Shown here piece by piece: positions 6,785 through 60,631 of a DNA stretch of 64,000 bases (the first letter of the stretch is position 1; each line of letters begins with the position of its first letter). The stretch lies in IMG/VR virus record IMGVR_UViG_3300020434_000055. The stretch is one strand, 5' to 3'. The notes under the pieces are model-generated. The model ran no database searches. It worked only from the letters and a program-made list of their open reading frames with translations, and was not told the DNA's origin. Origin of the DNA: a virus (lineage: Duplodnaviria; Caudoviricetes). The translations under genes were made by a program, and so were the position numbers.

Positions 6785-6786
6785 AA

Positions 6787-32487: not shown

Positions 32488-33633
32488 TTAAATTGTTGAT
32501 AATTGTTTTTCTTTAAAGTCTTTCTGACTTTTATATGTCCATTTAGTAAGTTCGTATTCTTTTACATCATTAGGTTTAAACATATATTTTTCTGGGACTG
32601 TATCGTGCAATAATTTACCTTCATTAACAACTGCATCACGTAACATTATTTGATGTAAAAAATTTGTTACTGGTTTTCCTGGAACAAAATCGCACCAAGG
32701 ACCACATTGTAATTGTTCTAGGTCTATAGTTTTAGGATCACTCCATTGAATAATCCTGTGAGGTATTCCATTAATGTTTACCATATAATGATATAAATTA
32801 TCATCAGCAGTTTTCTTTTCCCAAGTCCAACCTTTGCGTTCGCATATTTCTTTAATCTTTGCTACGTGTCTACTTAAAAAGAATTTAGGTTCGTCTGGAG
32901 ATCTACCAATATCAGACCCTGCTCTAATTCTATATTGCCAAGATTTATTTCCTAAACTTTGTATTTCTTCTAAAACTTCTTCCATATGATCCAAATGCTC
33001 TAAAGTGTATCCTACATAGTAAACAAAAATTCCTTCTTTTATACAATTGTCAATTCCAATTAATTGTTTTTCATGAATTTTTTTACCTTGATAACTACAA
33101 TGATTCATTCCAATCATAACTGCTGTTATACCTGCTTCTGCAATTTGACGTGTCCAATTTCTATCTGAAAATTTTACACCATTTGTTAATATAGCAATAT
33201 CTTCTTTTCGATTACATTTACGCAAAGTATTTCTAATTTGTGTAATTAATTCGGGCAAATCTTTTCTTACTGTAGGTTCTGCACCAGCTAAAATAACTAC
33301 GCCAGCGTCTGAATGTAATCTATTTTCAACTTGCGAACAAATTATGTTTATAGGTTTGTCTAGTGTTCTATTATCTGGTCTATGATAACAATGAGGACAA
33401 TTTAAATTACATTTGTCTGTAACTTCTATTAATACTCCATCCGGTATAGTATATCCTGCTTTATCATAAATCAAACTGTTGTAAAATTCAACATCAGTTT
33501 CTACAAGATACTCCATATGTCCGTGTTCAGGGCACGTTTTATTAAGATAAACTGCATTATTTTTAGTAATACGTTCTGCTGGAATATGTCTATAACAAGT
33601 ATGACACAAACTTATTGTTTTAGTATCGTTCAT
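32488..33633 (-). CDS. Radical SAM protein with N-terminal Cys/His metal ribbon (MJ0619/Tes-like architecture)
   Basis: SLCHTC...KTCPEHG, then EVTDKCNLNCPHCY, AGAEPT, TNG. Confidence 0.75.
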   Translation of the reverse strand: MNDTKTISLCHTCYRHIPAERITKNNAVYLNKTCPEHGHMEYLVETDVEFYNSLIYDKAGYTIPDGVLIEVTDKCNLNCPHCYHRPDNRTLDKPINIICSQVENRLHSDAGVVILAGAEPTVRKDLPELITQIRNTLRKCNRKEDIAILTNGVKFSDRNWTRQIAEAGITAVMIGMNHCSYQGKKIHEKQLIGIDNCIKEGIFVYYVGYTLEHLDHMEEVLEEIQSLGNKSWQYRIRAGSDIGRSPDEPKFFLSRHVAKIKEICERKGWTWEKKTADDNLYHYMVNINGIPHRIIQWSDPKTIDLEQLQCGPWCDFVPGKPVTNFLHQIMLRDAVVNEGKLLHDTVPEKYMFKPNDVKEYELTKWTYKSQKDFKEKQLSTI

Positions 33634-33637
33634 ACAA

Positions 33638-34324
33638 TTATTTATAGATACTTATTGCTTGGTCAATGAAGTCATCTGGGTAGCTATTACGAAAACTTTC
33701 AAAGCATAGTAATTGAGCTTTATCAAAGGATACAGGAGCATTAACGTCTATATTCATAGCTTTCATTTGTTCATACATTATTACTTTTCTATCATTTGAT
33801 ATATGACTTAAATGATCTTTAACAGTGATTTTAGGTTCGTGAACCATATAACTAAAAAAATAATTAATAGATTTAAGTCTACCTTCTACTACAAAATAAC
33901 TGCTAGGATGAAGACTATACTTGTACATACCTATATCTTTATGTGCTTGAATTATTTCTAACATCTGTTCTTTCCAATTAGGCAATACATCTTCATATGT
34001 TTTATTATGACTTTGCTCCCAGAAGTCTACACCTTCTATACCTAAATGAATTTTTTTCTCTGTATAATTTATATCAAGTATGGATGGTATGTGTTGAGGA
34101 TACTTACTATGCATTTTTAATAACATATTAGTTTCTCTCAACCATTTTTGATTCATTAATTCTGCATCTATTATTTGATTATGTCCTTTATGATATAATG
34201 TATCATTAAAAAACCACTGTACAAATTCAGTTTTATCTTTGTTTACTAAACTAGTATAAACTAAATTATTCCTACATAGCCCTTTATCAGGAACATTATT
34301 ATAATAATATTCGTAATTAATCAT
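33638..34324 (-). CDS. Hypothetical protein, possibly a degenerate kinase-like fold
   Basis: RE..ML, IPSILD, KYSLHPSSYF and KSINYF align loosely with kinase subdomains; catalytic Asp residues are absent. Confidence 0.35.
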   Translation of the reverse strand: MINYEYYYNNVPDKGLCRNNLVYTSLVNKDKTEFVQWFFNDTLYHKGHNQIIDAELMNQKWLRETNMLLKMHSKYPQHIPSILDINYTEKKIHLGIEGVDFWEQSHNKTYEDVLPNWKEQMLEIIQAHKDIGMYKYSLHPSSYFVVEGRLKSINYFFSYMVHEPKITVKDHLSHISNDRKVIMYEQMKAMNIDVNAPVSFDKAQLLCFESFRNSYPDDFIDQAISIYK

Positions 34325-34916
34325 TATATCTCCATAATCTTTGTTTATATAATTGAGATAAAAATATTTGAGGATTTAAACGCCAAATACTTTGTGGAGT
34401 ATTTCTATAATTTAAATCTTTAATATATTCTAAACAACCAGATTTTGCTAACATAGGTGCCCATATTTTATGCACTAATTTTTGAGATCCTGCTTCATTT
34501 TTGTTTGTTGTTATATAAAGTTTTTTGTTTTCTAATGAATACCCCCCATAAGGTTTACCTAAAAGTCCTACCCATTCAATACAAGCAGGCATAAAAAATT
34601 GAGGTGTAACACTTTGATGTTCTACAATTTGTTTTTTAGTTCTTACATTATTAATTGGCAATTCATCTGTGAACACGCAAGTTCTTGCCAATATTCTATA
34701 ACTATTTTCTCCCATTTCATCAAAAGAATGTGCGGCAGTAGACCCAACAATTTTATTTTTATATTGTAAAAACCAAACTTGCCATTCTCGTTCTTTACTA
34801 ATAGAATCTATTAATATTTTTTTTGAACTATTATTTTCGAATCCTTTTTGTTTAGCATTTTGGTAAAAATTAACTAAATCTAAACTTTCTTCGTAAGGTA
34901 TTATTTTGTAATCCAT
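34317..34916 (-). CDS. Hypothetical protein, possible GNAT-like fold
   Basis: WFLQYKNKIVGSTAAH...YRILARTCV strand pattern. Confidence 0.35.
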   Translation of the reverse strand: MDYKIIPYEESLDLVNFYQNAKQKGFENNSSKKILIDSISKEREWQVWFLQYKNKIVGSTAAHSFDEMGENSYRILARTCVFTDELPINNVRTKKQIVEHQSVTPQFFMPACIEWVGLLGKPYGGYSLENKKLYITTNKNEAGSQKLVHKIWAPMLAKSGCLEYIKDLNYRNTPQSIWRLNPQIFLSQLYKQRLWRYND

Positions 34917-34956
34917 GAATTTTTTCCGGCATCAATATTTAACACTAAATATTGGC

Positions 34957-35736
34957 ATGATTAAAGGAATTGGTGGTCAACCATATATAAATTTAGATCC
35001 TTACATTGATATAGACACATACAAAAAACTTCATTATAAATTGTGTGAAGGTTTGGTAAAATCAGAATATAAAAAAGAAGGTAATATGGTAAAACCTGGA
35101 GGTTGCGAAGGTGCTTATGATTTATGGTTTAAACCAATCTATCAAGTGTTAGAAGAATATCATGAATTGCCTGACGACCACGAAATAAAACAAATTGGTA
35201 AAAAAATTGGTGAGTACGATAATAGAGATCAATTTATACTATTTTTAAAATTGTCTATGGGAGCATATGATCCTTATCAATTTATTTTTATAAAATCTGA
35301 AGAAGGTGGTTGGGAAAGTAGATTTGAAGAAAAACAATGGACATCTGATTCTAAATATTTTCCAGAACTAAGACAGTGGTTAGAAAAACTTGTGTCTGAT
35401 AAAGTTTTTGAACATTTAGGAAGAGTAATATTTTTCAAAGCCGAACACGATGTATTCATGCCATTGCATAGAGATTTAATACTACCTAATGAAAATGATT
35501 ACACAGATCATCGACATGAATTTATTCATATACGTACTAACTTAGACAAACCTGTTTATATATGGGACGGAAAAGACAAAAAAATACTTATTGAAAGCCA
35601 TGCTACGTTCTTTAATGATCAAGACTGGCACGCAGGTGGAAAAACTCCTAAACAAACTTTTAGTTTAAGAATTGATGGAAAATTTACTGAATCTTTTAGA
35701 AAAAAGATAGGAATAGGCCATTTAGAAAATTACTAA
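34957..35736 (+). CDS. 2OG-Fe(II)/cupin-like oxygenase
   Basis: PLHRD...FNDQDWHAG...SLRIDG. Start reset to ATG 34957 (TAAATA at 34946-34951). Confidence 0.6.
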   Translation: MIKGIGGQPYINLDPYIDIDTYKKLHYKLCEGLVKSEYKKEGNMVKPGGCEGAYDLWFKPIYQVLEEYHELPDDHEIKQIGKKIGEYDNRDQFILFLKLSMGAYDPYQFIFIKSEEGGWESRFEEKQWTSDSKYFPELRQWLEKLVSDKVFEHLGRVIFFKAEHDVFMPLHRDLILPNENDYTDHRHEFIHIRTNLDKPVYIWDGKDKKILIESHATFFNDQDWHAGGKTPKQTFSLRIDGKFTESFRKKIGIGHLENY

Positions 35737-36293
35737 TGAAAATATTAATCACAGGACATACATCACCAATGGGTAAAGATGTTTATGAACACTATTCAAA
35801 AGATCATGAGTGTTTAGGAGTAAGTAGAACATCTGGTTACGACTTAAACAAATCAGAGGATCAGAATAGAGTAGTTACTGAAGCATTAGCACATGATATA
35901 TTTTTAAACATAGCACACGTTGACGCAGTACAATCAATATTATTAAACAAATTAAACGAACGTTGGACTGCTGAAGCACCACTTAAAAAAGTAATTACAA
36001 TAGGATCATTAATTACAAAATTAGATAAAAAGTTATTAGATAAAGTTAACATAGACAAAAAATATCTTGCAGACAAACATCATCTAGATAGTGTAAGTGA
36101 TTCTTTAAGCAATGAAAAGCCATTTGGCTCACAACTACAATTCAGTTTGATTAGAGTCTTAAATTATGGACCTAAAACAGGAGAACGTGAAGGCGAACCA
36201 ACTTGCAATGTAAACGACATTGTACGTTCTATTGATTATGTAATTAATGAACCTATGTATATAGGTATGATGAATATAAGGAGAAGAGTTTAA
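35736..36293 (+). CDS. Atypical SDR/Rossmann-fold protein
   Basis: MKILITGHTSPMG, FLNIAH, ITIGS, YxxxK (YLADK). Confidence 0.65.
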   Translation: MKILITGHTSPMGKDVYEHYSKDHECLGVSRTSGYDLNKSEDQNRVVTEALAHDIFLNIAHVDAVQSILLNKLNERWTAEAPLKKVITIGSLITKLDKKLLDKVNIDKKYLADKHHLDSVSDSLSNEKPFGSQLQFSLIRVLNYGPKTGEREGEPTCNVNDIVRSIDYVINEPMYIGMMNIRRRV

Positions 36294-36294
36294 G

Positions 36295-36900
36295 ATGAAT
36301 CATGCAAAACTTTATGATAATTTTAAAGACAAATTTGATTGTGAAAAACTAATATCGCAATTAAAAAAACATAAGGGTGTTAGACGTTCATCTGATATTC
36401 CAACTGAAGATACAGAATATGGTGACAAAGCAGTATGGAGAAAAACTGTTGGAGACCTTTGGAAAAGTGTTGGCTACACAGAATTAGATTCTGTAGAATG
36501 GTGGAATTTATATTCTGGTGAACATTTTGATTCAGACTTTGTAACACAATTTGAAAATCTTGTAAATGCTGATAAATTTATGTGCTGGGTAAGTTCTATT
36601 AACCCAGGCAAGTGTGTTCCTAATCATTATGACATTGTACCAGAGTATAGCAAATTAAAAGATGATCCTAAAATGGTCAGATTTGCTTTTTTCATAGACA
36701 AACCTGAAACAGGTAAAGTATTCATCATTAAAGACCAAGCCTTTCATATGTGCAACCAAGGAGATTGTTACGTATGGAATAAATGGGACGAATGGCATAT
36801 GGGTATGAACACTTCTAGTTCAATAAAGTACATTTGGAATTTTATCGGATTAAAAAGAAAAGAAGGCGGAGATGTTTTGAAATTTAGACATTTCTTTTAA
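36295..36900 (+). CDS. Asp/Asn beta-hydroxylase-like 2OG-Fe(II) oxygenase
   Basis: INPGKCVPNHYD...WHMGMN. Confidence 0.65.
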   Translation: MNHAKLYDNFKDKFDCEKLISQLKKHKGVRRSSDIPTEDTEYGDKAVWRKTVGDLWKSVGYTELDSVEWWNLYSGEHFDSDFVTQFENLVNADKFMCWVSSINPGKCVPNHYDIVPEYSKLKDDPKMVRFAFFIDKPETGKVFIIKDQAFHMCNQGDCYVWNKWDEWHMGMNTSSSIKYIWNFIGLKRKEGGDVLKFRHFF

Positions 36901-36903
36901 AAA

Positions 36904-37560
36904 ATGATAGATACATCAATTAAAGTTTTTAATAAATTCAAAGATGGTTCTTTACCGTGGTTAGAATTAGATTTGGATTTTAGTTCATATATAAAAGAAT
37001 CAGAATTTACTGCCGTTGAACCTTATTATGTAACACACAGAGAAGGCGAAACACATAAAGATTGGGAAAGTTGTTGCATTCATGGATTAGGTATTGACAA
37101 AACAAGAGTAGCAACAGATTATGAATATGACAATGAGTTAACTGCGCCATACGATTGGACTCCGTTAGCAAATTTGGCTCCAACAGTTAGAAAATTTTGG
37201 GAAGAGTTCCCAGCAGAAAAATACACTAGAATACGTTTTATGAAATTAAAGCCAGGCGGTAAAATAGATTGGCATAACGACCGTCCACAAAAATTACCTG
37301 ATGATATATGCGAATCAGTAATACCAATAAATGTTGCTGTAACAAATCCAGCATTATGTTATATGGAAATAGAAGATCACGGTATTGTACCTTGGAGAAA
37401 CGGCAAAGTATTTTTAATTAATATTTTAAAAAATCATACAGTAGTCAATAATTCAAATGCTGATAGAATTCATATGATTGGTACTGTATATGTAGGAAAC
37501 AAAAGAAAAGAATTTAATAGTTTACTTGAAAAAAGTTTAAGAAGAAAATTGATTAAGTAA
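36904..37560 (+). CDS. Asp/Asn beta-hydroxylase-like 2OG-Fe(II) oxygenase
   Basis: LKPGGKIDWHND...WRNGKVFLINILKNHTVVN...DRIHMI. Confidence 0.75.
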   Translation: MIDTSIKVFNKFKDGSLPWLELDLDFSSYIKESEFTAVEPYYVTHREGETHKDWESCCIHGLGIDKTRVATDYEYDNELTAPYDWTPLANLAPTVRKFWEEFPAEKYTRIRFMKLKPGGKIDWHNDRPQKLPDDICESVIPINVAVTNPALCYMEIEDHGIVPWRNGKVFLINILKNHTVVNNSNADRIHMIGTVYVGNKRKEFNSLLEKSLRRKLIK

Positions 37561-38163
37561 AATTTCATGAGCCATAACAATTCTCCATTCAGGTATAGGA
37601 GTACCTACTCCATCATAATTTTCTGATACGTCTATATCTTTATACCAAGAATAATGAGGATATGTAGGATTAAATGCCATCTTACCTTGTCTAACAAAAG
37701 CTCTCTTTTTTTCTCCAACACAAATACCACATTTCATTATATCTTCAGTAGGTATAGCTAAACTGTATAAAATTGTATAGCATTTTCCTAAATGCTGATC
37801 CTTTTCAGAATCTCCATTAACTTCACTTTGTGGAGGTACGCCATTAAGAGAGACTTTATGTAATCCTTTTAAATTTTCTCTAGCAAACTCTGTACTCTTT
37901 TTAAAATATTTGTATGCTTCTTTTTCTTGACCATTTAAATAAACTTGCTTACTATACCGAGAATTAATATTGTCAAGATATTCTGATATGTTAAGTTCTG
38001 ATTTCCAATTTGGTCTATCTCTAGGAATTTCTAAATTCCAACTTATTTTTTGTAAATGGTCATTACCATCAACAAAATACCAATTATAATCAGCAGTTAA
38101 TAATTTATGATATTCTTGTAATTTATCGTAACTATTATATGTTTTTAAATCTATGAATTCCAT
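37537..38163 (-). CDS. Cupin/2OG-oxygenase-like protein, first His apparently lost
   Basis: VSLNGVPPQSEV...FNPTYPHYSW...RIVM; the HxD position reads GDSE. Confidence 0.45.
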   Translation of the reverse strand: MEFIDLKTYNSYDKLQEYHKLLTADYNWYFVDGNDHLQKISWNLEIPRDRPNWKSELNISEYLDNINSRYSKQVYLNGQEKEAYKYFKKSTEFARENLKGLHKVSLNGVPPQSEVNGDSEKDQHLGKCYTILYSLAIPTEDIMKCGICVGEKKRAFVRQGKMAFNPTYPHYSWYKDIDVSENYDGVGTPIPEWRIVMAHEILLNQFSS

Positions 38164-38210
38164 TGTATCTTTATTTACTTTCTTTCATTTGGTCTGAATT
38201 AAAAGAAGAA

Positions 38211-38882
38211 TTAGTCATAGTCTATAAGCACCTCAAAGCCACAATCTCGTTTTAAATTTAACACTTCTTGCAAAGCAAATTGTTCAACTTGAAATGTTAT
38301 ACAAAAATCAGAAATTTTTTTAAAATCACTAATTAAACCATCTTTATTAAGCCTGTTTAATAAACAAGAAAAACTACGATCAAAAAGATATCTTAAATTA
38401 TATGGAGGATTTTCTACTTTACAAGTTACTACTGTAGGTTCTTGTAAATCAATTTTATTTAAAAGTTTTCTAATTACTAATTCATATCTATCTTTATATC
38501 CATAATTACTTGCAGTATGCAACCGACCTGCATCCATTTCATATAAAATATCATTAGCAACACAAGGATATGTTACCAATCTTTCTATATCAGTTAGGTA
38601 ACTCTGTTCAGATTCTAATGTTAAATGATAACGATCATCTATATCAGCATGAGCAGTATAACACTCTCCTGGTTTCATTACATTTATTCTTGCTTCTCCT
38701 ACGGGTCCTATATTATAAAATAATTCTCCAAGACTAGTACCATTATACACAGGAAGTAACTCCCATTCATCATAAAAGAAATCACCTTTTGGTTTAGTCA
38801 AAACGTTTTTACCAGGACCAAAATGTTTAACTAAATCAAATATTTCTTTAGAGGAATGTGTTATACCAGTCTTTTTAAGCAT
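38211..38882 (-). CDS. Asp/Asn beta-hydroxylase-like 2OG-Fe(II) oxygenase with C-terminal extension
   Basis: MKPGECYTAHADIDDRYHL...GRLHTASN...RYELVI. Confidence 0.7.
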   Translation of the reverse strand: MLKKTGITHSSKEIFDLVKHFGPGKNVLTKPKGDFFYDEWELLPVYNGTSLGELFYNIGPVGEARINVMKPGECYTAHADIDDRYHLTLESEQSYLTDIERLVTYPCVANDILYEMDAGRLHTASNYGYKDRYELVIRKLLNKIDLQEPTVVTCKVENPPYNLRYLFDRSFSCLLNRLNKDGLISDFKKISDFCITFQVEQFALQEVLNLKRDCGFEVLIDYD

Positions 38883-38938
38883 ACCAATATTTACCGTGAA
38901 AAATAATATGCATATTTAATTACGATAAGTATTAATTG

Positions 38939-39757
38939 ATGCCTATGAATAAACGAGTAAAAAAACTTTACGAAAACAGTACCTACAAAAACATAATTCA
39001 CAATGTTGCTGATGTATATTTTCCTTTGGATCCAAAATGGAAAAACATAGGAATAAGCCTTAGTGGTGGATGTGATAGTGCTTTATTGGCATATGTTATA
39101 TGCGACATAATTAAACAGAAAAAACTTTATACCAAAATACATATAATCTATAACGTTAGATTATGGAAAACACGTCCTTGGCAACAATATATTTTTAAAC
39201 AAGTGCTTTCTTGGTTTAAAGAAATGTTTAAAGATTTATGGTTTGTTGAACATACTAATTTTATTGCACCAGATTTAGAATGGGGCTCTAAAGGTCCAAA
39301 TATCATAGACGAATATGGCAAATTAAAAAGTGGTAATCAAATTGAATTAAGATCACACGCAGAATATATAGGTCACAAATATGAATTAGATGCTTGGTAT
39401 TGCGGACTTACTAAAAATCCTGAAACAGAATTTGATGAGCGACTCTTAGATAGAGATAGTACATTAACAAATGATACTATTGAAAATCTACATCGATTGA
39501 TAAAGCCACACATGAATGGCGTGGCTTGTCATCCTTTCACCTTCGTACAAAAAGACTGGATAGTATCTCAATATAAGAGATTAGGCATCATGAATCTATT
39601 CAATCTTACTAGAAGTTGCGAAGGTGATAAGGAAACTTATCCCGAAATATTTAAAGACTTGGATTATAAAACATATGTTCCAGGTAAAGATGTTCCTGTA
39701 TGTGGTAAATGTTTTTGGTGTAAAGAAAGACAATGGGGTATAGACAATAGTGACTGA
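38939..39757 (+). CDS. QueC-like PP-loop ATP pyrophosphatase
   Basis: SLSGGCDSALL PP-loop; TRSCEG...CGKCFWCKER zinc motif. Confidence 0.7.
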   Translation: MPMNKRVKKLYENSTYKNIIHNVADVYFPLDPKWKNIGISLSGGCDSALLAYVICDIIKQKKLYTKIHIIYNVRLWKTRPWQQYIFKQVLSWFKEMFKDLWFVEHTNFIAPDLEWGSKGPNIIDEYGKLKSGNQIELRSHAEYIGHKYELDAWYCGLTKNPETEFDERLLDRDSTLTNDTIENLHRLIKPHMNGVACHPFTFVQKDWIVSQYKRLGIMNLFNLTRSCEGDKETYPEIFKDLDYKTYVPGKDVPVCGKCFWCKERQWGIDNSD

Positions 39758-41168: not shown

Positions 41169-41832
41169 GATTAAAAACTTGTTTATCTCCTTCAGGCCCT
41201 AAATGATTAACTCTGAAGCCAACTAAATTTTGTAAAAATGGTAAATTTTCTTCACACCAGGCTCTTTTTGGATCTGTTCTACAACTAATATAATACAAAG
41301 GTTTTCTTATTTCTGTTCCGTGTTTCCAAGTGTACAAATAATTAATATCTTTTAATTCTGCTTTGTTCCAAGGTTCAACTTTAGTATCTCCAAAACTCCA
41401 TAAGTGTAAAATTTTTCCTTTCATTTTAGACAAGTATTCATGGTCTAACCAATAAGCAACAGCCTGAAAATTTAATCTTTCTTTATTCCATTCTACTAAT
41501 TCTTCATAAAACATTTGAGCGGCTTTATGTTTTTTACTAGAACCGTCATAGGCACTAACTGGATTTAAATCTCCTTTTGAATGATATGTTCTAAAAGGAT
41601 CGGTCCAAGCAAATATACAATAATCTAAATCTTTAAATTTGTGAAAGTTTTTTGTAAAATGTATAATAGCAGTCCAATAACTTGAACCACCTATACCTGT
41701 ATTCACAATTTCTGCATCTAATAAATCTGCTATTCGACCCATCCAATTGTCTTTAAGAGGATGAGCAATAAAACTGTCTCCGAAGAAACCTATCTTGTTT
41801 TTGGCACTTGAATGTCCGCTATACATACACAC
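41131..41832 (-). CDS. SGNH/GDSL-like protein
   Basis: FFGDSF, NTGIGGSS, VNHLGPEG; start uncertain. Confidence 0.55.
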   Translation of the reverse strand: MCMYSGHSSAKNKIGFFGDSFIAHPLKDNWMGRIADLLDAEIVNTGIGGSSYWTAIIHFTKNFHKFKDLDYCIFAWTDPFRTYHSKGDLNPVSAYDGSSKKHKAAQMFYEELVEWNKERLNFQAVAYWLDHEYLSKMKGKILHLWSFGDTKVEPWNKAELKDINYLYTWKHGTEIRKPLYYISCRTDPKRAWCEENLPFLQNLVGFRVNHLGPEGDKQVFNLIKDVITQEKWI

Positions 41833-42770
41833 CTTTCTTGATTACAAATAACTTCATTTGTTGGAAATTTAAATTCTTCATCATATTTTTTACCTGTAAA
41901 TCCTTCAGATAATACTCTACAACCTGCTCCTAAATACATTCGCTTATCAAAATTAATATAAATTCTGTTTATTCCTGCTTTACATTTATAGCCACGCCAG
42001 TCTACAATATCATTTGCTACTGCCCAATAAGGATCAAATTCTTCTAAAATATCTGACTTAATCATAACCATACTTCTATCAAATTTAGTATCTACTTTTT
42101 CATTAACTCTTTGTTGAGATCTAATCGTATGTTTAAATATTTGTTTTTGTTCATCTGTATACGGATATAAATCTCTTTCAGTTGCGTTGTCAGTTTGCCA
42201 AGCATGATGTAAAGGTTTAGCTTGTATTCCCCACTCAGTTCTTTTACTATTTTTTAATATGTCTATTATTTCCATACATTTAGACCAGTCATCTGGTTTT
42301 ATCATTACATGACAAATACTGTCTATGTTATTGTCTGTCAAAAAGTCACACACATCTCTGATGTGTTCCGCCTTACAAAATTCTGGATGAACACTAAAAT
42401 GTACTGCAAAAAAATTTTTATAATTGTCTTGCCACCATTCCATTTTTCTACTACCATTTGTAATAGGTATAATTAAATTATTATCATTTTTATTAATATA
42501 TTCACATAGTTGTGAAAAGTCTTTATAAAGAGTTGGTTCACCTCCTCCAAATTTCCAAATAAAATGTGTAATACCTAATTTAGTATAATGTTCATGTAAC
42601 TTATCTATAAATTTTTTACTAGCTTCTAAGTTAATCCAAGGAAACGAATTATCATGTAATACAGGCAAACAATAAGAACAATTATAATTGCACGTATTAC
42701 CTAGAGTCCATTCAATTTGTAAAACATTGTTTAATTCAGGAAATTTATAAGTTATTTTGTGTATTTTCAT
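41790..42770 (-). CDS. Radical SAM protein with C-terminal SPASM/twitch-like motif
   Basis: GNTCNYNCSYC, GGGEPT, TNG, CKAG...GAGC...CNQERCVC. Confidence 0.85.
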   Translation of the reverse strand: MKIHKITYKFPELNNVLQIEWTLGNTCNYNCSYCLPVLHDNSFPWINLEASKKFIDKLHEHYTKLGITHFIWKFGGGEPTLYKDFSQLCEYINKNDNNLIIPITNGSRKMEWWQDNYKNFFAVHFSVHPEFCKAEHIRDVCDFLTDNNIDSICHVMIKPDDWSKCMEIIDILKNSKRTEWGIQAKPLHHAWQTDNATERDLYPYTDEQKQIFKHTIRSQQRVNEKVDTKFDRSMVMIKSDILEEFDPYWAVANDIVDWRGYKCKAGINRIYINFDKRMYLGAGCRVLSEGFTGKKYDEEFKFPTNEVICNQERCVCIADIQVPKTR

Positions 42771-43662
42771 TTTTTATTTTTGTTAAATTTATATCCGCGG
42801 CGCAAGTACACCACTCTCTTGTACATACAATAGGATCTATAGGAAATTGAAACGTACCATTATAAATGTTACCTAAACTACCTCCTACTCTACAAGTTGC
42901 TCTATGCACATCACCGTCCCAATTAATCATTAAACTTTCTAAACCTGCATTACAAAGCCATCCTTTAAATTTATTAGTTTTTAAAATTAACATATCATTT
43001 ACATTACAAGTTTTGGTTTTATCTATTAAAGTATTGTGCGGTGGATTATGGTTTTGGATTTTCAAAAACTTTTTTTCTTCTTCATTATATCGATTCATAT
43101 CTTCAAAATCATCATGCTTTTTGGTCCAACGTATTGGACGTAAACTATACTTTATATTACCATTTAAAAGGCGTCTACAAGCGTCATGCACGTCGTTTAG
43201 TAAGCCGGGAAGCATCATTACGTGTACAAGAGCGTTCTTATTAACTGAGCTGTTAACTGCCCTTATAATAGTTTCCAAAACCTTTTTCCAGTCGTATTCA
43301 AAGTGCAAACTGAATACAATATGGTTAAGATAATTGTCCAAAATACTTTGATAATATTCGGCTGTTCTGGTCCCGTTGGTCGTTACATTTATCCATGTTA
43401 CTTTTGGTTTTGCGTATTCTAAAAGCTCTGTAAATTTTGGATGTACACAAGGCTCACCTCCTGTAAAACTTATTCTAGGTTTGTTCATTTTAGAAATAAT
43501 ATCTACAGTTTTTTTAAGGATTTCTATATCTGTATGTTCACTAAAATTATCATGTATCTCTGCAGGACAATAACTGCAATCATAGTTACATCTTTTACCT
43601 ATGTTCCATTCTATTTTGGTACTTTGCCGTACTTCTTCATATAAATGTTCTACTTTATACAT
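42745..43662 (-). CDS. Radical SAM protein with C-terminal SPASM/twitch-like motif
   Basis: KRCNYDCSYC, TGGEP, TTNG, CNAG...ATC...CTREWCTC. Start reset to MYKVEH at 43662. Confidence 0.85.
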   Translation of the reverse strand: MYKVEHLYEEVRQSTKIEWNIGKRCNYDCSYCPAEIHDNFSEHTDIEILKKTVDIISKMNKPRISFTGGEPCVHPKFTELLEYAKPKVTWINVTTNGTRTAEYYQSILDNYLNHIVFSLHFEYDWKKVLETIIRAVNSSVNKNALVHVMMLPGLLNDVHDACRRLLNGNIKYSLRPIRWTKKHDDFEDMNRYNEEEKKFLKIQNHNPPHNTLIDKTKTCNVNDMLILKTNKFKGWLCNAGLESLMINWDGDVHRATCRVGGSLGNIYNGTFQFPIDPIVCTREWCTCAADINLTKIKNENTQNNL

Positions 43663-44923
43663 ATGGAGCAAACTCCGGAATAATTTTTTCAAGCGGACCT
43701 TGATTTCTTGTTTTATCTAGTCTATGATTAAAATCTACACAATCTTTCCAATACTTGTTTAGATCTCTTGCTTTAAGAAAATTAATATTATCCTGAATTT
43801 GTTGTAATGTAATTTTTTCTAATATTGGATGTTCTTGAACTAATCTATATTGCTTAACTTTGTCCTTCATTAATTCTAATTTAGATATAACTTGATCTTT
43901 TAATTCTTTAGGTAATACTTGGGCACTTAAGGCTCTTGGATATTGTACTCTATGACTATAAAATACTATTTCTAACTTGTTTAAAAAGTAATCTATTACT
44001 TTGTCTATTTGCATTATATTATTAGACTGTACTGTAAATGCTCCTACTATTCTACTTACAGTAGGAATAGTTTTCATTATTCTAATATTATCTACAACAT
44101 CTTGAAATTTTCCATTGCTTCTAACATATTCATATACATCGTCTAAGCCATCTATACTAACATTAACAGCCACAGATTTAAATTTAGGCCAATAGTCTTT
44201 AATCCATCTTCCTTTTATTCCTAATACTGTACCATTTGTTGCATATTTTATTTCTATATTTTTTCCATTTTCACTAAGAAGATCTAAAATTTTATAATGC
44301 ATAGGATCCATTAATGGTTCTCCGCCAGCAAATTCTACTCTTTTAAAATGAGGTAATAGCTTTCTTAAACTATCCCAAAATTCTTTTTTATCATCAAATA
44401 ATCCTACATATGGAGCTTCTGTTAAACCTAAATCTTCTACTGCTTTAACAAGGTAATTGTCTTCCTTTTTATAATGTTCTACAATACTATTCCAATCTTT
44501 CCATTGCGTACTATCTAACGGATTGCACATACGACATTTTAAATTACATAAGTTATTAATTTTAATTTCAATAGTAGGTAATTCAAAAGGCATTGTCATA
44601 TCTGTAGTAAGACTTTTAAGTGCGTCAGGGTAAAGATTAACTCTTGATTCTGGCATATTATCTGCAATATGTCTTTGTCTTAAACTTTGTACTCCTTGGT
44701 CTTCTAGGTCAAAACACGGTTTACATACGTCAGGACGTTCATCGCTTAATACTTGACGTCTAACTTCACGCATATTTTCACCATTCCACGCTTCTTCTAA
44801 AGTTTCGTTTTTAATATTACCAATAGGAAGGCTTCTGCAACATACTTTAATTGCGCCATCTTCTCTAGTAGCAAGACCTGTAAAAGGGTGCATACAAAAC
44901 GTGCAACTTTTATTCTTTTTCAT
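43655..44923 (-). CDS. Radical SAM protein with N-terminal twitch/SPASM-like Cys motif
   Basis: FCMHPF...DGAIKVCC...CKPC; NLCNLKCRMC; AGGEPL. Confidence 0.85.
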   Translation of the reverse strand: MKKNKSCTFCMHPFTGLATREDGAIKVCCRSLPIGNIKNETLEEAWNGENMREVRRQVLSDERPDVCKPCFDLEDQGVQSLRQRHIADNMPESRVNLYPDALKSLTTDMTMPFELPTIEIKINNLCNLKCRMCNPLDSTQWKDWNSIVEHYKKEDNYLVKAVEDLGLTEAPYVGLFDDKKEFWDSLRKLLPHFKRVEFAGGEPLMDPMHYKILDLLSENGKNIEIKYATNGTVLGIKGRWIKDYWPKFKSVAVNVSIDGLDDVYEYVRSNGKFQDVVDNIRIMKTIPTVSRIVGAFTVQSNNIMQIDKVIDYFLNKLEIVFYSHRVQYPRALSAQVLPKELKDQVISKLELMKDKVKQYRLVQEHPILEKITLQQIQDNINFLKARDLNKYWKDCVDFNHRLDKTRNQGPLEKIIPEFAPYV

Positions 44924-44945
44924 AATATTAGTATTTAATGGGATT

Positions 44946-46325
44946 TTAAGTGTCTAAATCTTTCCAGTCATCTCCAAATCTCCACATAGGGGCTTTTAAT
45001 GAATCAAGGTCTACTTCATCAAATTTTTCTACAGGACCTGAGTACTGTTTATAATCTACAAAGCCTGACCAAGCATGAACTGAAACAATTAATTGTATTT
45101 TGGAATATTTTTCTTTTAATATACGTAAAAGTTTATTTTCTTTTTCTAATCTTTGTGTAACAGTCATAAAAGCTACTGTGGGCTCATAAGCAAAAATATT
45201 ACTAACATTAAAAATTGTATTTTCATCATTATTAACTTTTATATTAAACTCATTTAATAAATCACATTGAACAAAATCTATTTTTACTTCATCTTTTATA
45301 TTCCATAACTTGGAAATTTTACTAAATCTAGTAACAATTTCTTGTTTACTTTGAAACCAATCTGGTGCTTTTTTAATTAATTCTTCATCTTTGATTAATT
45401 CTTTTAAGAACTTATGATAGTCATGTCCTTTAAATTCATTAATTGTTTCTTTCATATACCACAATGCATTAGGATTATAATCATAAAATATAACTTCTGT
45501 ATTTTCATCATATCCATATTTGTCTAAATATAATAACCAATTAAATCCACTTGCAGGAACAATTAATTGTGTAATAGGTCCTTTTATTTTAACTTTTTGA
45601 AGTTTTTCTGTGTTAGTAGGATAATAAAGTCTATTCGCGGCAAAATTATATTTTTGATATATTTTTTCACTATTTTCTTGAAAGTCTGAATCGTATTCAG
45701 CATAATAACATTTTTTACCATCTCTAAATTTTTGATCAAATATAACTATATCCTCATCATTATCTAAAGCAATACTAATTATATTCCAACCATGACATTT
45801 ATCTTCATACTCTGTCATTTCATTACCAGGTTTAATCCAAATAGGTGTATGGTTATCATGATAATTTTCTTCACTTCTAATAGGTATTGCTTTTAAATGT
45901 TTTTCTTTTTCTTTTTCAGCACCTATTTCTGGATATTCATATTCGGCCCATTTTTTTAAATTAATAATATAACATTGATCATGAAGTTCGTAATAACTTC
46001 TTTTTCTATCTAATATATGTCCTGCTATAAAAAAATCTGTTTTAATTAATTCTTCGAGTTGTTCAAAAAATTGACTTCCTTCAAATTCTGTATCTGCTGT
46101 ATAAACTACTGCATGAGTATAATCTTTTTCACTTTGTTTTAAACCATTTTCTTCTGTTATTGCTGTTAACAAGTCATACCCATTACTATTAATATTCTGT
46201 ATTTGATAATCAGCAATATTTTTAATTAATTCTTTAGTCCACGCTCTTTGTATTTTGTACATATTGTCTATACAAATAAACACAACATCGGACGTTCTAT
46301 TCATAGCGTCAAATTTATATGCCAT
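44946..46325 (-). CDS. Hypothetical protein, possibly a two-domain enzyme
   Basis: 459 aa; C-terminal half has a weak methyltransferase-like pattern (PASG..., IFYDYN, VQCDLL). Confidence 0.5.
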   Translation of the reverse strand: MAYKFDAMNRTSDVVFICIDNMYKIQRAWTKELIKNIADYQIQNINSNGYDLLTAITEENGLKQSEKDYTHAVVYTADTEFEGSQFFEQLEELIKTDFFIAGHILDRKRSYYELHDQCYIINLKKWAEYEYPEIGAEKEKEKHLKAIPIRSEENYHDNHTPIWIKPGNEMTEYEDKCHGWNIISIALDNDEDIVIFDQKFRDGKKCYYAEYDSDFQENSEKIYQKYNFAANRLYYPTNTEKLQKVKIKGPITQLIVPASGFNWLLYLDKYGYDENTEVIFYDYNPNALWYMKETINEFKGHDYHKFLKELIKDEELIKKAPDWFQSKQEIVTRFSKISKLWNIKDEVKIDFVQCDLLNEFNIKVNNDENTIFNVSNIFAYEPTVAFMTVTQRLEKENKLLRILKEKYSKIQLIVSVHAWSGFVDYKQYSGPVEKFDEVDLDSLKAPMWRFGDDWKDLDT

Positions 46326-47032
46326 TAAAGAAAACCACCTTTCTTCGGTAGAGCTTTTGGATCTGTATTTCTAATATTACCATCGTCTATAGTCGTCTTG
46401 ACCATTTGACTATTAGGAGAATTACATCCTATAATCATATATCTTGTATATTTTTGTGTCTTCAATTCTACAGGTGGAAGAATTTCTTCTAAGTCTGTGG
46501 ATTCTGCAAATTCTGTCAAACTATTTTTACAATTTATATGACCTTTCCCTTCAGAAAAGTTATTACTTTGACATATTATTGTTTTGTTTTTAGGTAATAA
46601 TGTTATCCATTTATTAAAATCTTCTTGCGTCATATGTTCACACACTGTATTAATGATTATATCATAATCATTATAATTTTTAAAATTTAACATATCACAA
46701 GTTTCTGCTTTAAATCTTCCTTTTATTTCATATTCTTTATTCATTTCATAAGCTATTTTTTTACAATCTTCGTCTATATCAATGCTTAAAATCTTACTCA
46801 CAGATATTTCACTATTAAACAATAGTGTTGCCATTACACCATTCCAACCACCACATATAAGAACTTTAGCATCTATGATTCTTTGCATTTTATGAACTTC
46901 TTTAAGTCTTTCACATAACCAAACCTTACTTAATACTTGTCCCTTCCAAAAACTTTCTAATGTTTTATCTCTATCTTCGGATCCTCTTATAGTATCCATC
47001 CAGTATAATATGTCTTTAATATTGAGTTTCAA
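46325..47032 (-). CDS. Class I SAM-dependent methyltransferase
   Basis: VLICGGWNG motif I, SIDID, CDML, INTVCEHM. Confidence 0.75.
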   Translation of the reverse strand: MKLNIKDILYWMDTIRGSEDRDKTLESFWKGQVLSKVWLCERLKEVHKMQRIIDAKVLICGGWNGVMATLLFNSEISVSKILSIDIDEDCKKIAYEMNKEYEIKGRFKAETCDMLNFKNYNDYDIIINTVCEHMTQEDFNKWITLLPKNKTIICQSNNFSEGKGHINCKNSLTEFAESTDLEEILPPVELKTQKYTRYMIIGCNSPNSQMVKTTIDDGNIRNTDPKALPKKGGFL

Positions 47033-48005
47033 ATTGTTCTCCTAATCTATCAAATTTTCCACATTGTTTTGAACATTCCATTAAAGGTTTATCTGTCCAA
47101 GTATCTTCTATTTTTCTAAAAAATTGCGAATCAAATATTTCTTTTAAAGATTTGTTATGCAAATTAGTAAATTCTCCTATTTGATCCATATAATCTACCC
47201 TTGAGTCTTGTGTAGGCAATGTCCATTGCAAATCTAACCAACAACAAGGACTAACAGTACCATCTGCTGAAATATATATTTGACTATATTTTTTAGCTTT
47301 ACAATCTATGACGCAAGAAGTTATTTTTGCTTCTTGCATTTTAGCTATCATTTCAAAACTTTTTTTACTTGGCTCCAATATATGCGTTGTCTTTCCTGTT
47401 TCATCTATAGCGTGAAATTTATCACTTTTAAATCTTGATGTATGTTTATAACTAAAAGATTTAAAGCCCAATTCCTTACTCATTGTATGGCATTGTTCTA
47501 CTTGATGTTCATTATGTTTAAAAACTAACATATGCCATTTTGCATAACCCCCTGCTTTAATAAATGCTTTTGCATTTGTAATTATTTTTTTCCAGTCAGT
47601 AGAAACACGATATAGATGATGAGTGTCTGCCAAACCATCTATACCAAAAGTTGTTTTTACATTTTCTTTAGCCAATCCTTCCCACCAATTTATATCTCTA
47701 GCACTACCATTTGTATGCATAGCTAATCTAATTTTTGGATTAATACTTTTAATATATTGATAAATTTCTAATGTATCTTGAGCAATTATAGGATCTCCTA
47801 AATTACCACACATGAATAAACTTTCTAATTGAATCAAAAATTCTGTTGGAAACCATTTTTTAAATGTATCTAAATTAATTTCCACAAGATGTATTAATGG
47901 ATTTAGAGGACCTCCACCTATTCTTCTAGGACACATAGGACATCTAGCTTGACATTTGCTAGTAATTTCTAAATGCACATCTTTTATTTCTGAATAATTA
48001 TACAT
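47016..48005 (-). CDS. Radical SAM/SPASM protein
   Basis: SKCQARCPMC, GNLGDP, HTNG, C...ISADGTVSPCC...CSKQC. Confidence 0.85.
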   Translation of the reverse strand: MYNYSEIKDVHLEITSKCQARCPMCPRRIGGGPLNPLIHLVEINLDTFKKWFPTEFLIQLESLFMCGNLGDPIIAQDTLEIYQYIKSINPKIRLAMHTNGSARDINWWEGLAKENVKTTFGIDGLADTHHLYRVSTDWKKIITNAKAFIKAGGYAKWHMLVFKHNEHQVEQCHTMSKELGFKSFSYKHTSRFKSDKFHAIDETGKTTHILEPSKKSFEMIAKMQEAKITSCVIDCKAKKYSQIYISADGTVSPCCWLDLQWTLPTQDSRVDYMDQIGEFTNLHNKSLKEIFDSQFFRKIEDTWTDKPLMECSKQCGKFDRLGEQFETQY

Positions 48006-48978
48006 TTTTTTCCTTTGGTATTTTAGAATCTGCTGAACTTACACACGTTGGTGTTATACAATTTCTCGGTCTCTTAAACAATTTAAATCCACCTTCTATA
48101 GTTCCTAATGGTTCATCATGACAACTATACCCTCTTTTAATTTCTCCTCCCGGTTCTCTTATTATACAACTTTGATATCCTGCACTACAACTCCATCCTT
48201 TAAATTTATTAAATCCAAATGCATTAAGTCTTTCAGCTTGATCTAATTCATATTCTTTTCCTACTGCATCATACAATAATAATTGTTTTACTTCCTGGGT
48301 CATTTCATTTTGTAGTATATTAGCTTGTTCTTCTGTATATCCTTGTACAATAAAACTTGCTGTAGGATCACTTTGAGGTTTAAGAGTTACATTTAATCCT
48401 TTGTCTCTAAATCTTTTACATCTATTATAATACTCATCCCAACGTTCTGGAACCATAACTTGATTTATTGTTATAAGTATTCCATGTTCTTGTAAAAATT
48501 TAAGTTTATCACCAAATTCTTCCTCATTAGAAAATTCTGCATGGTAACTTGCTGTAATACTTCTACGATCCAATGGATAAGTTGTTTCTAACCATCGATC
48601 CCACCATTTTAAACCTGGACTACAATTACTAGTCATATGCACACTAAGATATTCACTTATAGGATCAGCATAATAATCTAATAATTCTATTAAACCTTTA
48701 TATGTTGTAGGTTCTCCTCCACTAAAACTAAAATGAAATTTACTAAATCCATATTCTCCTGCTTGTTTTTTAATTTCTTTTATAGTATTTTGATATTGTT
48801 CTAGTGGTCTATGATCTAAAACTTTACTTTTAGCATATGGCCAACAATAGCTACAATCATAATTACAAAATCTTCCAAGAATCCAGCTAACAGAGAACAC
48901 ATTTTGTTCCAACATTGTTCTTTGTCCCAATTTAACAATATTGTTAAACGGTATATTATTTTGATAATCCACAAACAC
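47998..48978 (-). CDS. Radical SAM protein with C-terminal SPASM/twitch-like motif
   Basis: RFCNYDCSYC, SGGEPT, CSAG...YSC...CITPTCVS; GTG start. Confidence 0.85.
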   Translation of the reverse strand: MFVDYQNNIPFNNIVKLGQRTMLEQNVFSVSWILGRFCNYDCSYCWPYAKSKVLDHRPLEQYQNTIKEIKKQAGEYGFSKFHFSFSGGEPTTYKGLIELLDYYADPISEYLSVHMTSNCSPGLKWWDRWLETTYPLDRRSITASYHAEFSNEEEFGDKLKFLQEHGILITINQVMVPERWDEYYNRCKRFRDKGLNVTLKPQSDPTASFIVQGYTEEQANILQNEMTQEVKQLLLYDAVGKEYELDQAERLNAFGFNKFKGWSCSAGYQSCIIREPGGEIKRGYSCHDEPLGTIEGGFKLFKRPRNCITPTCVSSADSKIPKEKNV

Positions 48979-49663
48979 TATCCTTCATTTTATATTTGTA
49001 ATATTCTTTTAACCACGTAAAATTATTAATTAATTTTAATTTACTTGGTAAATCTTTACTTTCAGACCCGTATTCTTTTCCTGCTAACGCTCCTTTAATT
49101 GCATATGACCCAAACAGTTTATCTTTTCCTACGGTACACCAAACATCTAATCTACTATCTGTTTCTTTATCATCTCCTCTATCAATAACTTTACTACTTA
49201 ATTTTACACACTCTCTAAATGCCGATTTAAAAGTATTGAACGCATCTGTATTAAAAACACTAACATTGGATACTTGTTCCATAGGTCTGAATCTATCACT
49301 AATACTTGTTGTCATATCAACTGTATCTTCATTTATTTCTAAAGTTTTTCTACGAGGTAATAGTTTTACGCCCCCGTAACCATACTCTAAATTATTAATT
49401 GGATTCCTACTTCGCCAAACGTGTACTACATTTTCATTTCTTTTTTCAGGTACAAAGTCAAAATTAAAACTATCTAATATATCTGCATCTGCATCTACCA
49501 CCCAAAACATTTTTGTTAAACATTTACTTGCGGCTACTTTATGTGCTTTATGAATTCCTTTTATTCCATTAACTCTTTGAGCTATTGGAAATCGTTTATG
49601 CAAATTATTAAAATGCTTATCAGCAGTAGCTTCATTATAGCTTATAAAAACAATATCATACAT
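48956..49663 (-). CDS. GT-A glycosyltransferase-like protein
   Basis: DIVFISYNE, AHKVAA, WVVDADA (DxD). Confidence 0.7.
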   Translation of the reverse strand: MYDIVFISYNEATADKHFNNLHKRFPIAQRVNGIKGIHKAHKVAASKCLTKMFWVVDADADILDSFNFDFVPEKRNENVVHVWRSRNPINNLEYGYGGVKLLPRRKTLEINEDTVDMTTSISDRFRPMEQVSNVSVFNTDAFNTFKSAFRECVKLSSKVIDRGDDKETDSRLDVWCTVGKDKLFGSYAIKGALAGKEYGSESKDLPSKLKLINNFTWLKEYYKYKMKDSVCGLSK

Positions 49664-54180: not shown

Positions 54181-54201
54181 TTGAATATTCCTTTAGAGTA
54201 T

Positions 54202-55674: not shown

Positions 55675-55701
55675 ATGTGTCCTATTTTAAATATTTATCT
55701 A

Positions 55702-57978: not shown

Positions 57979-57979
57979 C

Positions 57980-59992: not shown

Positions 59993-59995
59993 CTA

Positions 59996-60607: not shown

Positions 60608-60631
60608 TTACGCTCCAGTTCTTAGCTGTAT

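Follow-up and report, generated by a model that had tools for sequence, protein, structure and literature searches.

The 64,000-nt stretch of the virus record IMGVR_UViG_3300020434_000055 in IMG/VR (the window) carries an island of ~20 enzyme genes, seven of which encode radical S-adenosylmethionine (rSAM) enzymes. What such a set of enzymes makes for a phage is the question raised by this locus. The first-pass annotation regarded the island as a possible factory for post-translational modification (PTM) of virion proteins "or their glycans", served by late-type promoters. We tentatively favor, with a confidence somewhat short of even, the reading that the island encodes a soluble, cytoplasmic, multi-step tailoring pathway, probably expressed late, that would build a heavily modified product of sugar type (a glycan or glycoconjugate). 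The setting is as first described, between a fiber gene and a glycosyltransferase/tail block: a fiber-like gene with an Mtd_N-like N-terminus lies at 31397, genes for glycosyltransferases of the GT-A fold begin at 48956, and tail-fiber and baseplate proteins are encoded at 53293–64000. The island genes abut or overlap, with gaps of ~50 nt at the widest, and no hydrophobic or transmembrane segment was found in any island protein, all of which are predicted to be soluble.

Genes were accepted as rSAM genes when their products contained a CxxxCxxC motif and scored above the gathering cut-off of Pfam PF04055 (29.5 bits). Seven open reading frames (ORFs) passed with 32–59 bits, all with the motif, which is the number expected from the first inspection. 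All-against-all BLAST and profile-profile comparison separated them into four types, A to D (Table 1); at least three architectures had been proposed. Membership in the N-terminal-twitch family was assessed with NCBIfam NF033640 (N_Twi_rSAM; cut-off 170 bits), and SPASM domains with PF13186 (cut-off 21.5 bits). Both type A enzymes, o39750 and o43655, are full-length members of NF033640, and the other five rSAM proteins, with 23–45 bits or no match, are non-members. The SPASM score of o39750 (20.1 bits) is slightly below the cut-off. Four cysteines ahead of the rSAM core (C10, C28, C67 and C70) are invariant across 30 diverse type A members, and the N-terminal domain aligns over ~70 residues to the C-terminal twitch of BtrN (E ~1e-5). 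BtrN is 2-deoxy-scyllo-inosamine dehydrogenase, a twitch rSAM enzyme that oxidizes an aminocyclitol and thereby a known case of an rSAM enzyme oxidizing a sugar-like compound. Type A domains are tandem-fused in many proteins of ~800 aa, which fits the A/A' pairing seen in the island.

The type B trio (o41790, o42745 and o47998) shares a CNYxCSYC motif and four invariant C-terminal cysteines, with no Pfam SPASM match. The best matches of o42745 in PDB are the uncharacterized rSAM entries 9DFU and 9DFN, for which a literature look-up found no paper, the viperin-like entry 7N7H, and SkfB. Among named families, type B comes nearest to viperin-like enzymes, MoaA, QueE and SkfB, with scores far under the family cut-offs in every case. 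Assignment of type B as viperin was rejected, as NF038283 gave 40–59 bits against a cut-off of 180 and the viperin-like matches in PDB span the rSAM core only; assignment as QueE was rejected on NCBIfam scores far under the cut-off. Homologs of o47998 score 444–465 bits with the family hidden Markov model (HMM) in loci from metagenome-assembled genomes (MAGs) of several phyla, and type C has several paralogs within Bdellovibrionota clusters. The type D enzyme o32488 is predicted to have the domain architecture of Tes, TrsS and MJ0619 but belongs to neither tested family, with full-length scores of 100 for TrsS (cut-off 490) and 77 for Tes (cut-off 450). Single-sequence PHROGs and Pfam scans of the ORFs other than rSAM genes were near-empty, and family profiles, predicted folds and gene context gave the assignments in Table 1.

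Table 1. Predicted features of the island and its borders in the window, with the occurrence of gene families among 32 related loci
ORF	Coordinates	Strand	Predicted product or feature	Evidence	Occurrence
o31397	31397..32482	+	Fiber-like protein, Mtd_N-like N-terminus	Pfam Mtd_N E 1.2e-5, 25.6 bits, slightly below cut-off
o32488	32488..33633	-	rSAM type D, Zn_ribbon_HMPTM followed by rSAM core	Pfam Zn_ribbon_HMPTM 56.5 bits, Radical_SAM 49.4 bits	shell, 10/32
o33638	33638..34324	-	Small protein-kinase-like protein (Kdo/WaaP/RIO/APH clan)	Family profile vs TTK kinase domain E 2e-4	core, 29/32
o34317	34317..34916	-	GNAT-fold acyltransferase	AF2 model pLDDT 84	
o34915	34915..35736	+	Cupin/2OG-type oxygenase	Conserved H185-x-D187...H239; hhalign to o36904 family 75% probability	core, 26/32
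	34936..34951	both strands	Back-to-back TAAATA pair, divergent promoter-like site	Between o34317 and o34915	
o35736	35736..36293	+	Short SDR, NDP-sugar epimerase/dehydratase-like	Pfam RmlD_sub_bind E 0.027	shell, 8/32
o36295	36295..36900	+	Cupin/2OG-type oxygenase	Conserved H111-x-D113...H168; hhalign to o38211 family 72% probability	
o36904	36904..37560	+	Asp/Arg beta-hydroxylase-family oxygenase	PF05118 34.3 bits vs 22.6; conserved H124-x-D126...H178	shell, 6/32
o37537	37537..38163	-	Cupin-like ORF, uncertain	PF05118 E 0.14 only	shell, 4/32
o38211	38211..38882	-	Cupin beta-hydroxylase, Cpz10-like	Family profile vs PDB 7V4F E 6.5e-15	core, 31/32
o38936	38936..39757	+	QueC-like PP-loop ATPase, C-terminal Cys motif	Pfam QueC 15.9 bits vs 22 cut-off	core, 28/32
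o39750	39750..41168	+	rSAM type A' (N-terminal twitch)	NF033640 399.7 bits; CNIKCVMC motif	core, 32/32
o41131	41131..41832	-	Possible SGNH/GDSL-type esterase/acyltransferase	N-terminal FFGDSF motif only	shell, 4/32
o41790	41790..42770	-	rSAM type B (CNYNCSYC, C-terminal Cys cluster)	Radical_SAM 35.3 bits; paralog of o42745 and o47998	
o42745	42745..43692	-	rSAM type B	Pfam 58.8 bits; invariant C247, C267, C290, C295	core, 32/32
o43655	43655..44923	-	rSAM type A (N-terminal twitch)	NF033640 333.3 bits; Pfam SPASM 40.3 bits, residues 10-70	core, 32/32
o44946	44946..46325	-	GT-A-like glycosyltransferase candidate	Atlas structure search: Branch, Fringe, GT2, GT8, TM 0.3-0.4	shell, 10/32
o46325	46325..47032	-	Class I SAM methyltransferase-like	Pfam Methyltransf_25 E 0.012; invariant GGWNG and SxDID motifs	core, 27/32
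o47016	47016..48005	-	rSAM type C (C-terminal SPASM)	Pfam SPASM 36.7 bits, Radical_SAM 32 bits	core, 30/32
o47998	47998..48978	-	rSAM type B	Pfam 49.4 bits; most conserved family across distant loci	core, 25/32
o48956, o49663	48956..50631	-	Two paralogous GT-A-fold glycosyltransferases	o48956 AF2 model pLDDT 89	

The island has relatives in many phage contigs. At least 121 related loci were retrieved from IMG/VR, one of them on a 357,559-bp record with a CheckV completeness of 100%, and marine metagenome contigs of up to ~355 kb carry near-identical window proteins. The window is AT-rich (~30% GC) and of phage origin. Its family-B DNA polymerase is most similar (43–47% identity) to those of the jumbo phages Phosso, Atu_ph07, RaK2 and K64-1, and an ATPase and a VWA/metallopeptidase pair are encoded as well. 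A megablast search with the entire island as query found no match in 50,697 phage records, indicating no cultured phage alike at the DNA level among them. Gene content was compared across the 32 loci with full 10-kb flanks. Core genes, including both type A enzymes, are present in 25 to 32 of these loci, and shell genes in 4 to 17. The commonest gene order is QueC-like, A, B, B, A', and the gene of the o38936 family lies directly upstream of an N-terminal-twitch rSAM gene in most relatives. In the complete relative, all 13 rSAM matches fall inside 22 kb. The variable shell comprises extra cupins, the short-chain dehydrogenase/reductase (SDR), the GNAT-fold protein (GCN5-related N-acetyltransferase), the SGNH-like ORF and the GT-A enzymes, and differs even among near-identical phages: two loci that are 94–96% identical in their rSAM genes (L002 and L007) carry different cupin and SDR genes.

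The same enzymes are found outside phages. A type A profile search retrieved relatives mainly from Bdellovibrionota genomes, including contigs of 0.9–3 Mb. As judged with HMMs of the island families, these bacterial loci often combine types A/A', B and C with a QueC-like protein, an Asp/Arg hydroxylase and an o44946-like protein, and they also hold SDR genes, GDS-motif ORFs and B12-binding rSAM genes. One cluster (L081, 3000–18000), with six type A/A'/B rSAM genes and a cupin gene, forms a 31% GC island in a 2-Mb bacterial contig of 44% GC and looks horizontally acquired; its flanks encode a membrane-anchored GDS-motif protein, an arylsulfotransferase-like protein and a phosphodiesterase. Some low-GC matches on small MAG contigs may be mis-binned phage DNA, which does not apply to the loci on megabase contigs. 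Among cultured phages, the KVP40-like Vibrio phage K566 (L086, 160–170 kb of the record) has at least four N-twitch-type rSAM homologs in one cluster.

These occurrences bear on the proposal that the island modifies virion proteins directly, with the rSAM, SPASM and twitch enzymes and the Asp/Asn-type hydroxylases acting on fiber or baseplate polypeptides (cross-links, epimerization, hydroxylation) and glycosylation added on top. The location between fiber genes and the late-type promoters common to the island and the fiber genes speak for this proposal, and many characterized SPASM/twitch enzymes and PF05118 members use peptides or proteins. Polypeptide GalNAc transferases, SunS and the glycosyltransferase of the PBCV-1 capsid are also among the structural matches of o48956. 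However, the enzyme core also resides in Bdellovibrionota chromosomes, without virions, which indicates that the pathway is not tied to virions. The rSAM cluster of K566 adjoins PagP-like and NAMPT genes and lies amid genes without structural annotation. No Pfam match to a RiPP recognition element (RRE) or PqqD domain was obtained among the island proteins, and the core cupin and the twitch domain have as their nearest solved relatives enzymes that use small molecules. We therefore hold direct modification of virion proteins to be quite unlikely. Of the first-pass proposal, the late-type promoters stand as plausible and the protein substrate has lost ground; its alternative wording, the glycans of virion proteins, fits the data better.

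A cluster maturing a small ribosomal peptide, that is, a peptide made by the ribosome and modified post-translationally (RiPP), would also bring several SPASM/twitch rSAM enzymes together, and weak NCBIfam matches to RiPP maturases were obtained, with scores all far under the cut-offs. The absence of a visible precursor-peptide gene, remarked upon at first reading, agrees with the spacing, as the gaps leave no intergenic room for such a gene. The gaps in ten bacterial clusters contain no small ORF that is conserved, and neither an RRE domain nor a precursor peptide was found in the bacterial homolog clusters. We rejected the RiPP reading on these three grounds and consider it extremely improbable.

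The cupins and 2-oxoglutarate (2OG)-type hydroxylases give a first indication of substrate class. Membership in Asp_Arg_Hydrox (PF05118) was assigned at 22.6 bits or more together with an HxD...H iron triad. Of the five cupin/2OG-like genes counted initially, four (o34915, o36295, o36904 and o38211) keep the triad. The fifth, o37537, has no conserved HxD...H in an alignment of four sequences. In the family of o38211, H78-x-D80...H122 and R132 are invariant, and the best solved match, over ~100 residues that include the triad, is Cpz10 (PDB 7V4F; PMC9814697), a 2OG/Fe beta-hydroxylase of caprazamycin biosynthesis that hydroxylates a nucleoside-antibiotic intermediate. Homologs of o36904 occur in Bdellovibrionota clusters, some of them fused to an o44946-like domain, and o44946 homologs are fused to Asp_Arg_Hydrox in L084. 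Homologs of o34915 begin at Met15 of the called protein, which corresponds to an in-frame ATG at 34957. With the homologs starting at that Met and a TAAATA copy preceding it by 11 nt, o34915 probably begins at 34957, 14 codons downstream of the called start.

The PP-loop ATPase o38936 was described as QueC-like from the beginning. Its SGGCDS motif and C228...C256-x2-C259-x2-C262 are invariant, and two Bdellovibrionales homologs pass PF06508 (37.7 and 27.6 bits), over the C-terminal part only. The window protein itself falls below the Pfam cut-off, and NCBIfam QueC models gave no match to it. The protein is thus best described, by its motifs and scores, as QueC-like and not as QueC. Profile searches of PDB with this family and with the methyltransferase-like family of o46325 returned nothing useful.

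The QueC-like protein opens a further possibility, namely that the product is a nucleoside-type small molecule or a modified 7-deazaguanine base of DNA or tRNA, with the QueC-like and type B enzymes working on deazapurine, pterin or nucleotide substrates. The best named matches of type B, viperin-like enzymes, MoaA and QueE, are nucleotide users, and the type D enzyme bears the Zn ribbon of the pterin methylase family. The Cpz10 pathway for a nucleoside antibiotic also has kinases, methyltransferases and glycosyltransferases, and a QueD-like gene is present at 4544–5038 in the window. However, the scores for QueC-like, viperin-like, MoaA and QueE types are all below curated cut-offs, deazaguanine genes were not seen among the examined neighbors of the Bdellovibrionota core loci, and the GT-A, SDR, GNAT and SGNH-like enzymes suit sugars at least as well. 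Nucleoside or nucleic-acid chemistry appears unlikely. A Pfam search for tRNA-guanine transglycosylase (TGT) found no match in the relatives, even in G003, a close relative in which a dpdA-type gene would be expected, and the model probably misses phage DpdA.

The remaining enzymes would suit the decoration of a sugar-type product. The GNAT-like assignment of o34317 is borne out at the fold level. Its AlphaFold2 (AF2) model gave 115 Foldseek matches in PDB with E<=0.001, of which the top 50 listed all have the GNAT/acyl-CoA N-acyltransferase fold, with template modeling (TM) scores up to 0.68. The kinase-like assignment of o33638 finds moderate fold-level support, in that the top ten Pfam-bearing Atlas feature matches all belong to the kinase clan, but its conserved catalytic motif is the atypical H-P-S-S instead of the usual H-x-D-x4-N. 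For the SDR-like protein o35736 the evidence from the window sequence is weak by itself and is strengthened by the homolog in G003, which passes PF01370 (Epimerase) with its pieces summed; an SDR was also found in the Bdellovibrionia cluster L105. The methyltransferase noted for o46325 retains weak support, from its Pfam match and the invariant motifs. For the possible esterase/acyltransferase o41131, no family match was obtained in profile scans, and GDS-motif ORFs akin to it are present in the bacterial clusters L105 and L081.

Glycosyltransferase candidates would close the proposed pathway. The GT-A likeness of o44946 derives from a low-confidence Atlas model with a predicted local distance difference test (pLDDT) value of 0.58. 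For o48956, nearly all Foldseek matches are GT-A glycosyltransferases, with a few nucleotidyltransferases of the same fold (probability ~1.0, TM ~0.4), and its DxD motif (D57-x-D59) is invariant. The families of o48956 and o49663 adjoin rSAM genes in the distant loci L089, L108 and L118.

Five observations lead us to favor a product of sugar type. The GT-A enzymes travel with the core. The shell and its partners are of sugar-tailoring types, namely an SDR of the type that acts on sugars activated by a nucleoside diphosphate (NDP), GNAT, SGNH-like ORF, kinase of the Kdo/WaaP clan and methyltransferase. Homologous clusters hold sugar nucleotidyltransferases (NTP_transferase in L082; CTP_transf_3 with an amidotransferase of Asn_synthase type in L168). 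The nearest solved relatives of the cupin and the twitch domain use small hydroxylated substrates. Finally, a conserved core with a fast-changing shell resembles glycan-diversity loci and the host-recognition cluster of pelagimyophages.

A sugar-type product could also be destined for the host. The phage might remodel the host envelope by modifying the core or O-chain of lipopolysaccharide (LPS), or another surface glycan, from the cytoplasmic side, blocking superinfection or the trapping of progeny on debris. The kinase-like protein falls within the Kdo/WaaP clan, hydroxylases of lipid A and Kdo are among the members of PF05118, and genes for membrane-anchored enzymes border the bacterial cluster L081. 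The complete 357-kb relative G001 encodes KdsA-like (DAHP_synth_1), DUF481 outer-membrane and KdsB-like (CTP_transf_3) proteins side by side (L171, G001:35500–43500), with GT8 and GT2 matches at 46–49 kb, a few kb from these Kdo genes; a peptide deformylase is also encoded. From the annotation, this region looks like an auxiliary cluster of LPS/Kdo type. However, the Kdo and GT8 genes are ~130 kb off the rSAM island of G001, exclusion functions fit late-type promoters less well than early ones, and to our knowledge rSAM chemistry is not known in LPS synthesis. A membrane protein, flippase or polyprenyl-phosphate transferase is absent from the island, and membrane-bound O-antigen or polysaccharide machinery was rejected on the lack of hydrophobic segments. 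Envelope remodeling has been proposed for an analogous region with GT8, LPS genes and rSAM cassettes (PMC7029224), and we assign it a low probability here.

The timing of expression was addressed through the motif TAAATA, which had been noted 5–15 nt before several sub-operon starts. On both strands of the window it occurs 55 times against 183 ± 13 in dinucleotide-preserving shuffles, a three-fold depletion, and 14 hexamers of the same composition have 136–266 copies each. For 18 of the 55 copies (33%), a gene start in sense orientation follows within 60 nt, compared with 3–12% for the compositional peers. Directly upstream of genes, the motif is enriched five- to ten-fold in sense orientation. 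The longer ATAAATA is upstream and in sense orientation in 8 of 10 copies. All nine matches to TAAATA-N5-8-ATG are gene starts (positions 126, 2153, 2407, 8691, 33644, 34946, 38177, 38893 and 44937), and no Shine-Dalgarno sequence lies between TAAATA and ATG at these nine sites. One of them precedes an unlisted ORF of 81 aa (2164–2409). The first-pass annotation had named a lack of enrichment over the AT-rich background as the finding that would count against its promoters; the motif is rare overall, concentrated upstream of genes and far from chance.

Within the island, the motif is 11–14 nt upstream of the ATGs at 33633, 34957, 38163, 38882 and 44923, inside the range given earlier; the distance is 11 nt for o38211 and 14 nt for o37537 and o43655. 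The exact sequence TATAAATA is found 11 nt upstream of the o32488 ATG. In the divergent pair, the minus-strand copy (34936–34941) is 25 nt before the o34317 ATG and the plus-strand copy (34946–34951) 11 nt before the ATG at 34957. TAAATA also lies 23–52 nt upstream of the fiber genes at 31397, 54180, 55674 and 60607, and o31397, whose homologs adjoin the island in the relatives L028, L032 and L070, has two ATAAATA copies, 43 and 52 nt upstream. In relatives, the motif recurs wherever an N-twitch gene heads an operon.

In its extended form, (A/G/T)ATAAATA, the motif is similar to the late promoter of T4, TATAAATA. This promoter is read by gp55, and transcription starts ~6 nt downstream of the motif. 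A late sigma factor of gp55 type (phrog_234, E ~1e-23) is encoded in three relatives, including the complete 357-kb genome. A scan for sigma-70-type promoters gave results near chance in this AT-rich DNA (134 against 112 ± 11). We conclude that TAAATA appears to behave as a promoter and, because relatives encode a gp55-type sigma factor and the motif has promoter-like statistics, that the late-type assignment made at first is plausible. With T4-like start-site spacing, the island mRNAs would be leaderless or nearly so.

Under the sugar-type reading, the steps can be outlined as follows. The rSAM core would act on a sugar or sugar acid in nucleotide-activated form, by oxidation, epimerization, or C-C or C-H changes. 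For amidation, a carbonyl or carboxylate may be adenylated by the PP-loop enzyme. The cupins would hydroxylate, and the methyltransferase, kinase, GNAT and SGNH-like enzymes would decorate. The GT-A enzymes o44946, o48956 and o49663 would then pass the product to an acceptor that is synthesized concurrently, most plausibly the flanking fiber proteins, because the fibers are co-regulated with the island and encoded on both sides of it.

Several points weigh against this reading. The choice of acceptor is the least supported step. No nucleotidyltransferase or recognized sugar-nucleotide synthase is present within the island. Because the rSAM families have no characterized member, the sugar assignment rests on neighbors and distant analogies, and the type B rSAMs and the QueC-like enzyme appear as near to nucleotide/deazapurine enzymes as to sugar enzymes. 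In its favor, RNA-seq libraries from two marine studies contain assembled contigs identical to many island genes, although these contigs could reflect DNA carry-over and give no ends, strand or timing. A bolder version, which we think improbable, is that the core is a biosynthetic system common to marine jumbo and T4-like phages and Bdellovibrionota, making a new radical-tailored sugar or nucleoside unit that is installed on fibers late via near-leaderless transcripts of T4-late type. If true, it would be the first rSAM-dependent virion decoration pathway.

Other genes in the window were recorded. A 236-aa protein of PHROG family 3704 ("ferredoxin"), without a Pfam match, is encoded at 2989–3699 (+), with ATAAATA 52 nt upstream, and a peroxiredoxin is encoded nearby at 5038–5577 (+). 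The two are possible candidates for electron-supply and oxidative-protection partners of the seven Fe-S enzymes. A D-2-hydroxyacid dehydrogenase, a carbon-nitrogen hydrolase and an IMPDH/GMP-reductase family protein are encoded in tandem at 5513–8693 (+). They are followed at 8702–9073 (+) by a phage-encoded homolog of ribosomal protein bL12 (L7/L12), with 81 bits to Pfam Ribosomal_L12 and an N-terminal dimerization domain; TAAATA lies 11 nt upstream of its ATG.

The rSAM genes of this island are thus no loose collection: their core is fixed and has defined partners, the tailoring shell around it varies, and the promoters are of a specific type. Large phages rich in rSAM genes have been on record since 2010 without explanation, and a testable pathway can now be put forward for them. 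The island offers enzyme families without a known reaction, including the N-terminal-twitch rSAM family, and predatory bacteria use the same core. Homologs are carried by the culturable Vibrio phages K566 and 6E35.1a, of which K566 is a possible experimental model. If the product decorates fibers or the host surface, it would bear on host recognition and phage-phage competition among abundant marine phages.

Known systems resemble the island in part. Family NF033640 is a "subfamily" model without an assigned reaction, and the island members differ in occurring as A/A' pairs with fixed partner enzymes, some relatives being fused to ~800 aa. The likeness to BtrN, with its single auxiliary-cluster twitch, is limited to the ~70 aligned residues, and the twitch is C-terminal in BtrN but N-terminal in type A enzymes. 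Cpz10 belongs to an actinomycete liponucleoside pathway, and other caprazamycin enzymes (Cpz15, Mur17 etc.) are not recognized in the island. In chlorovirus PBCV-1, soluble GT-A enzymes encoded by the virus decorate the capsid within the cytoplasm, and the A64R glycosyltransferase is among the fold matches of o48956. Glycosylation of mycobacteriophage capsids and tails is another case of virus-encoded virion glycosylation. Unlike the island, these systems are not known to include rSAM enzymes.

A close parallel in organization is the host-recognition cluster (HRC) found in pelagimyophages and cyanomyophages (Zaragoza-Solas et al., 2020; PMC7029224), a hypervariable region around tail-fiber genes with glycosyltransferases, LPS-type genes, Asp/Asn beta-hydroxylase genes and rSAM cassettes. 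By the definition in that paper, the island has the features of an HRC, with fiber genes on both sides, GT-A genes and a shell that differs at 94–96% identity. Gene content turns over among close relatives in HRCs, and the island shell varies likewise. However, the island phage is a jumbo phage, with related contigs of up to ~357 kb and a polymerase nearest to the Atu_ph07/Phosso/RaK2 group, and the rSAM part of the island is a conserved, ordered core, in contrast to the loose cassettes of HRCs. The HRC paper describes the region without assigning its rSAM genes a role.

Phages with many rSAM genes have been reported elsewhere. Campylobacter phages CP220 and CPt10 have 11–12 rSAM genes along with a five-gene module that is interchangeable (Timms et al., 2010; PMC2853527), and a marine T4-like environmental genome has 12 rSAM genes with Fe-S assembly genes (Nishimura et al., 2017; PMC5332604). 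The role suggested by the authors was a metabolic advantage under low oxygen rather than product tailoring. The type C rSAM has a weak homolog in CP220 (~24% identity, one family only), and an N-twitch query matched only Vibrio and Ralstonia phages, with no CP220 match. None of these three papers gives the rSAM genes a function. Compared with them, the present analysis adds, from sequence comparison, the division of the island into named families that form a fixed core and a shell that varies, two members of the N-terminal-twitch family, a link to Bdellovibrionota, and promoter statistics together with a gp55 homolog.

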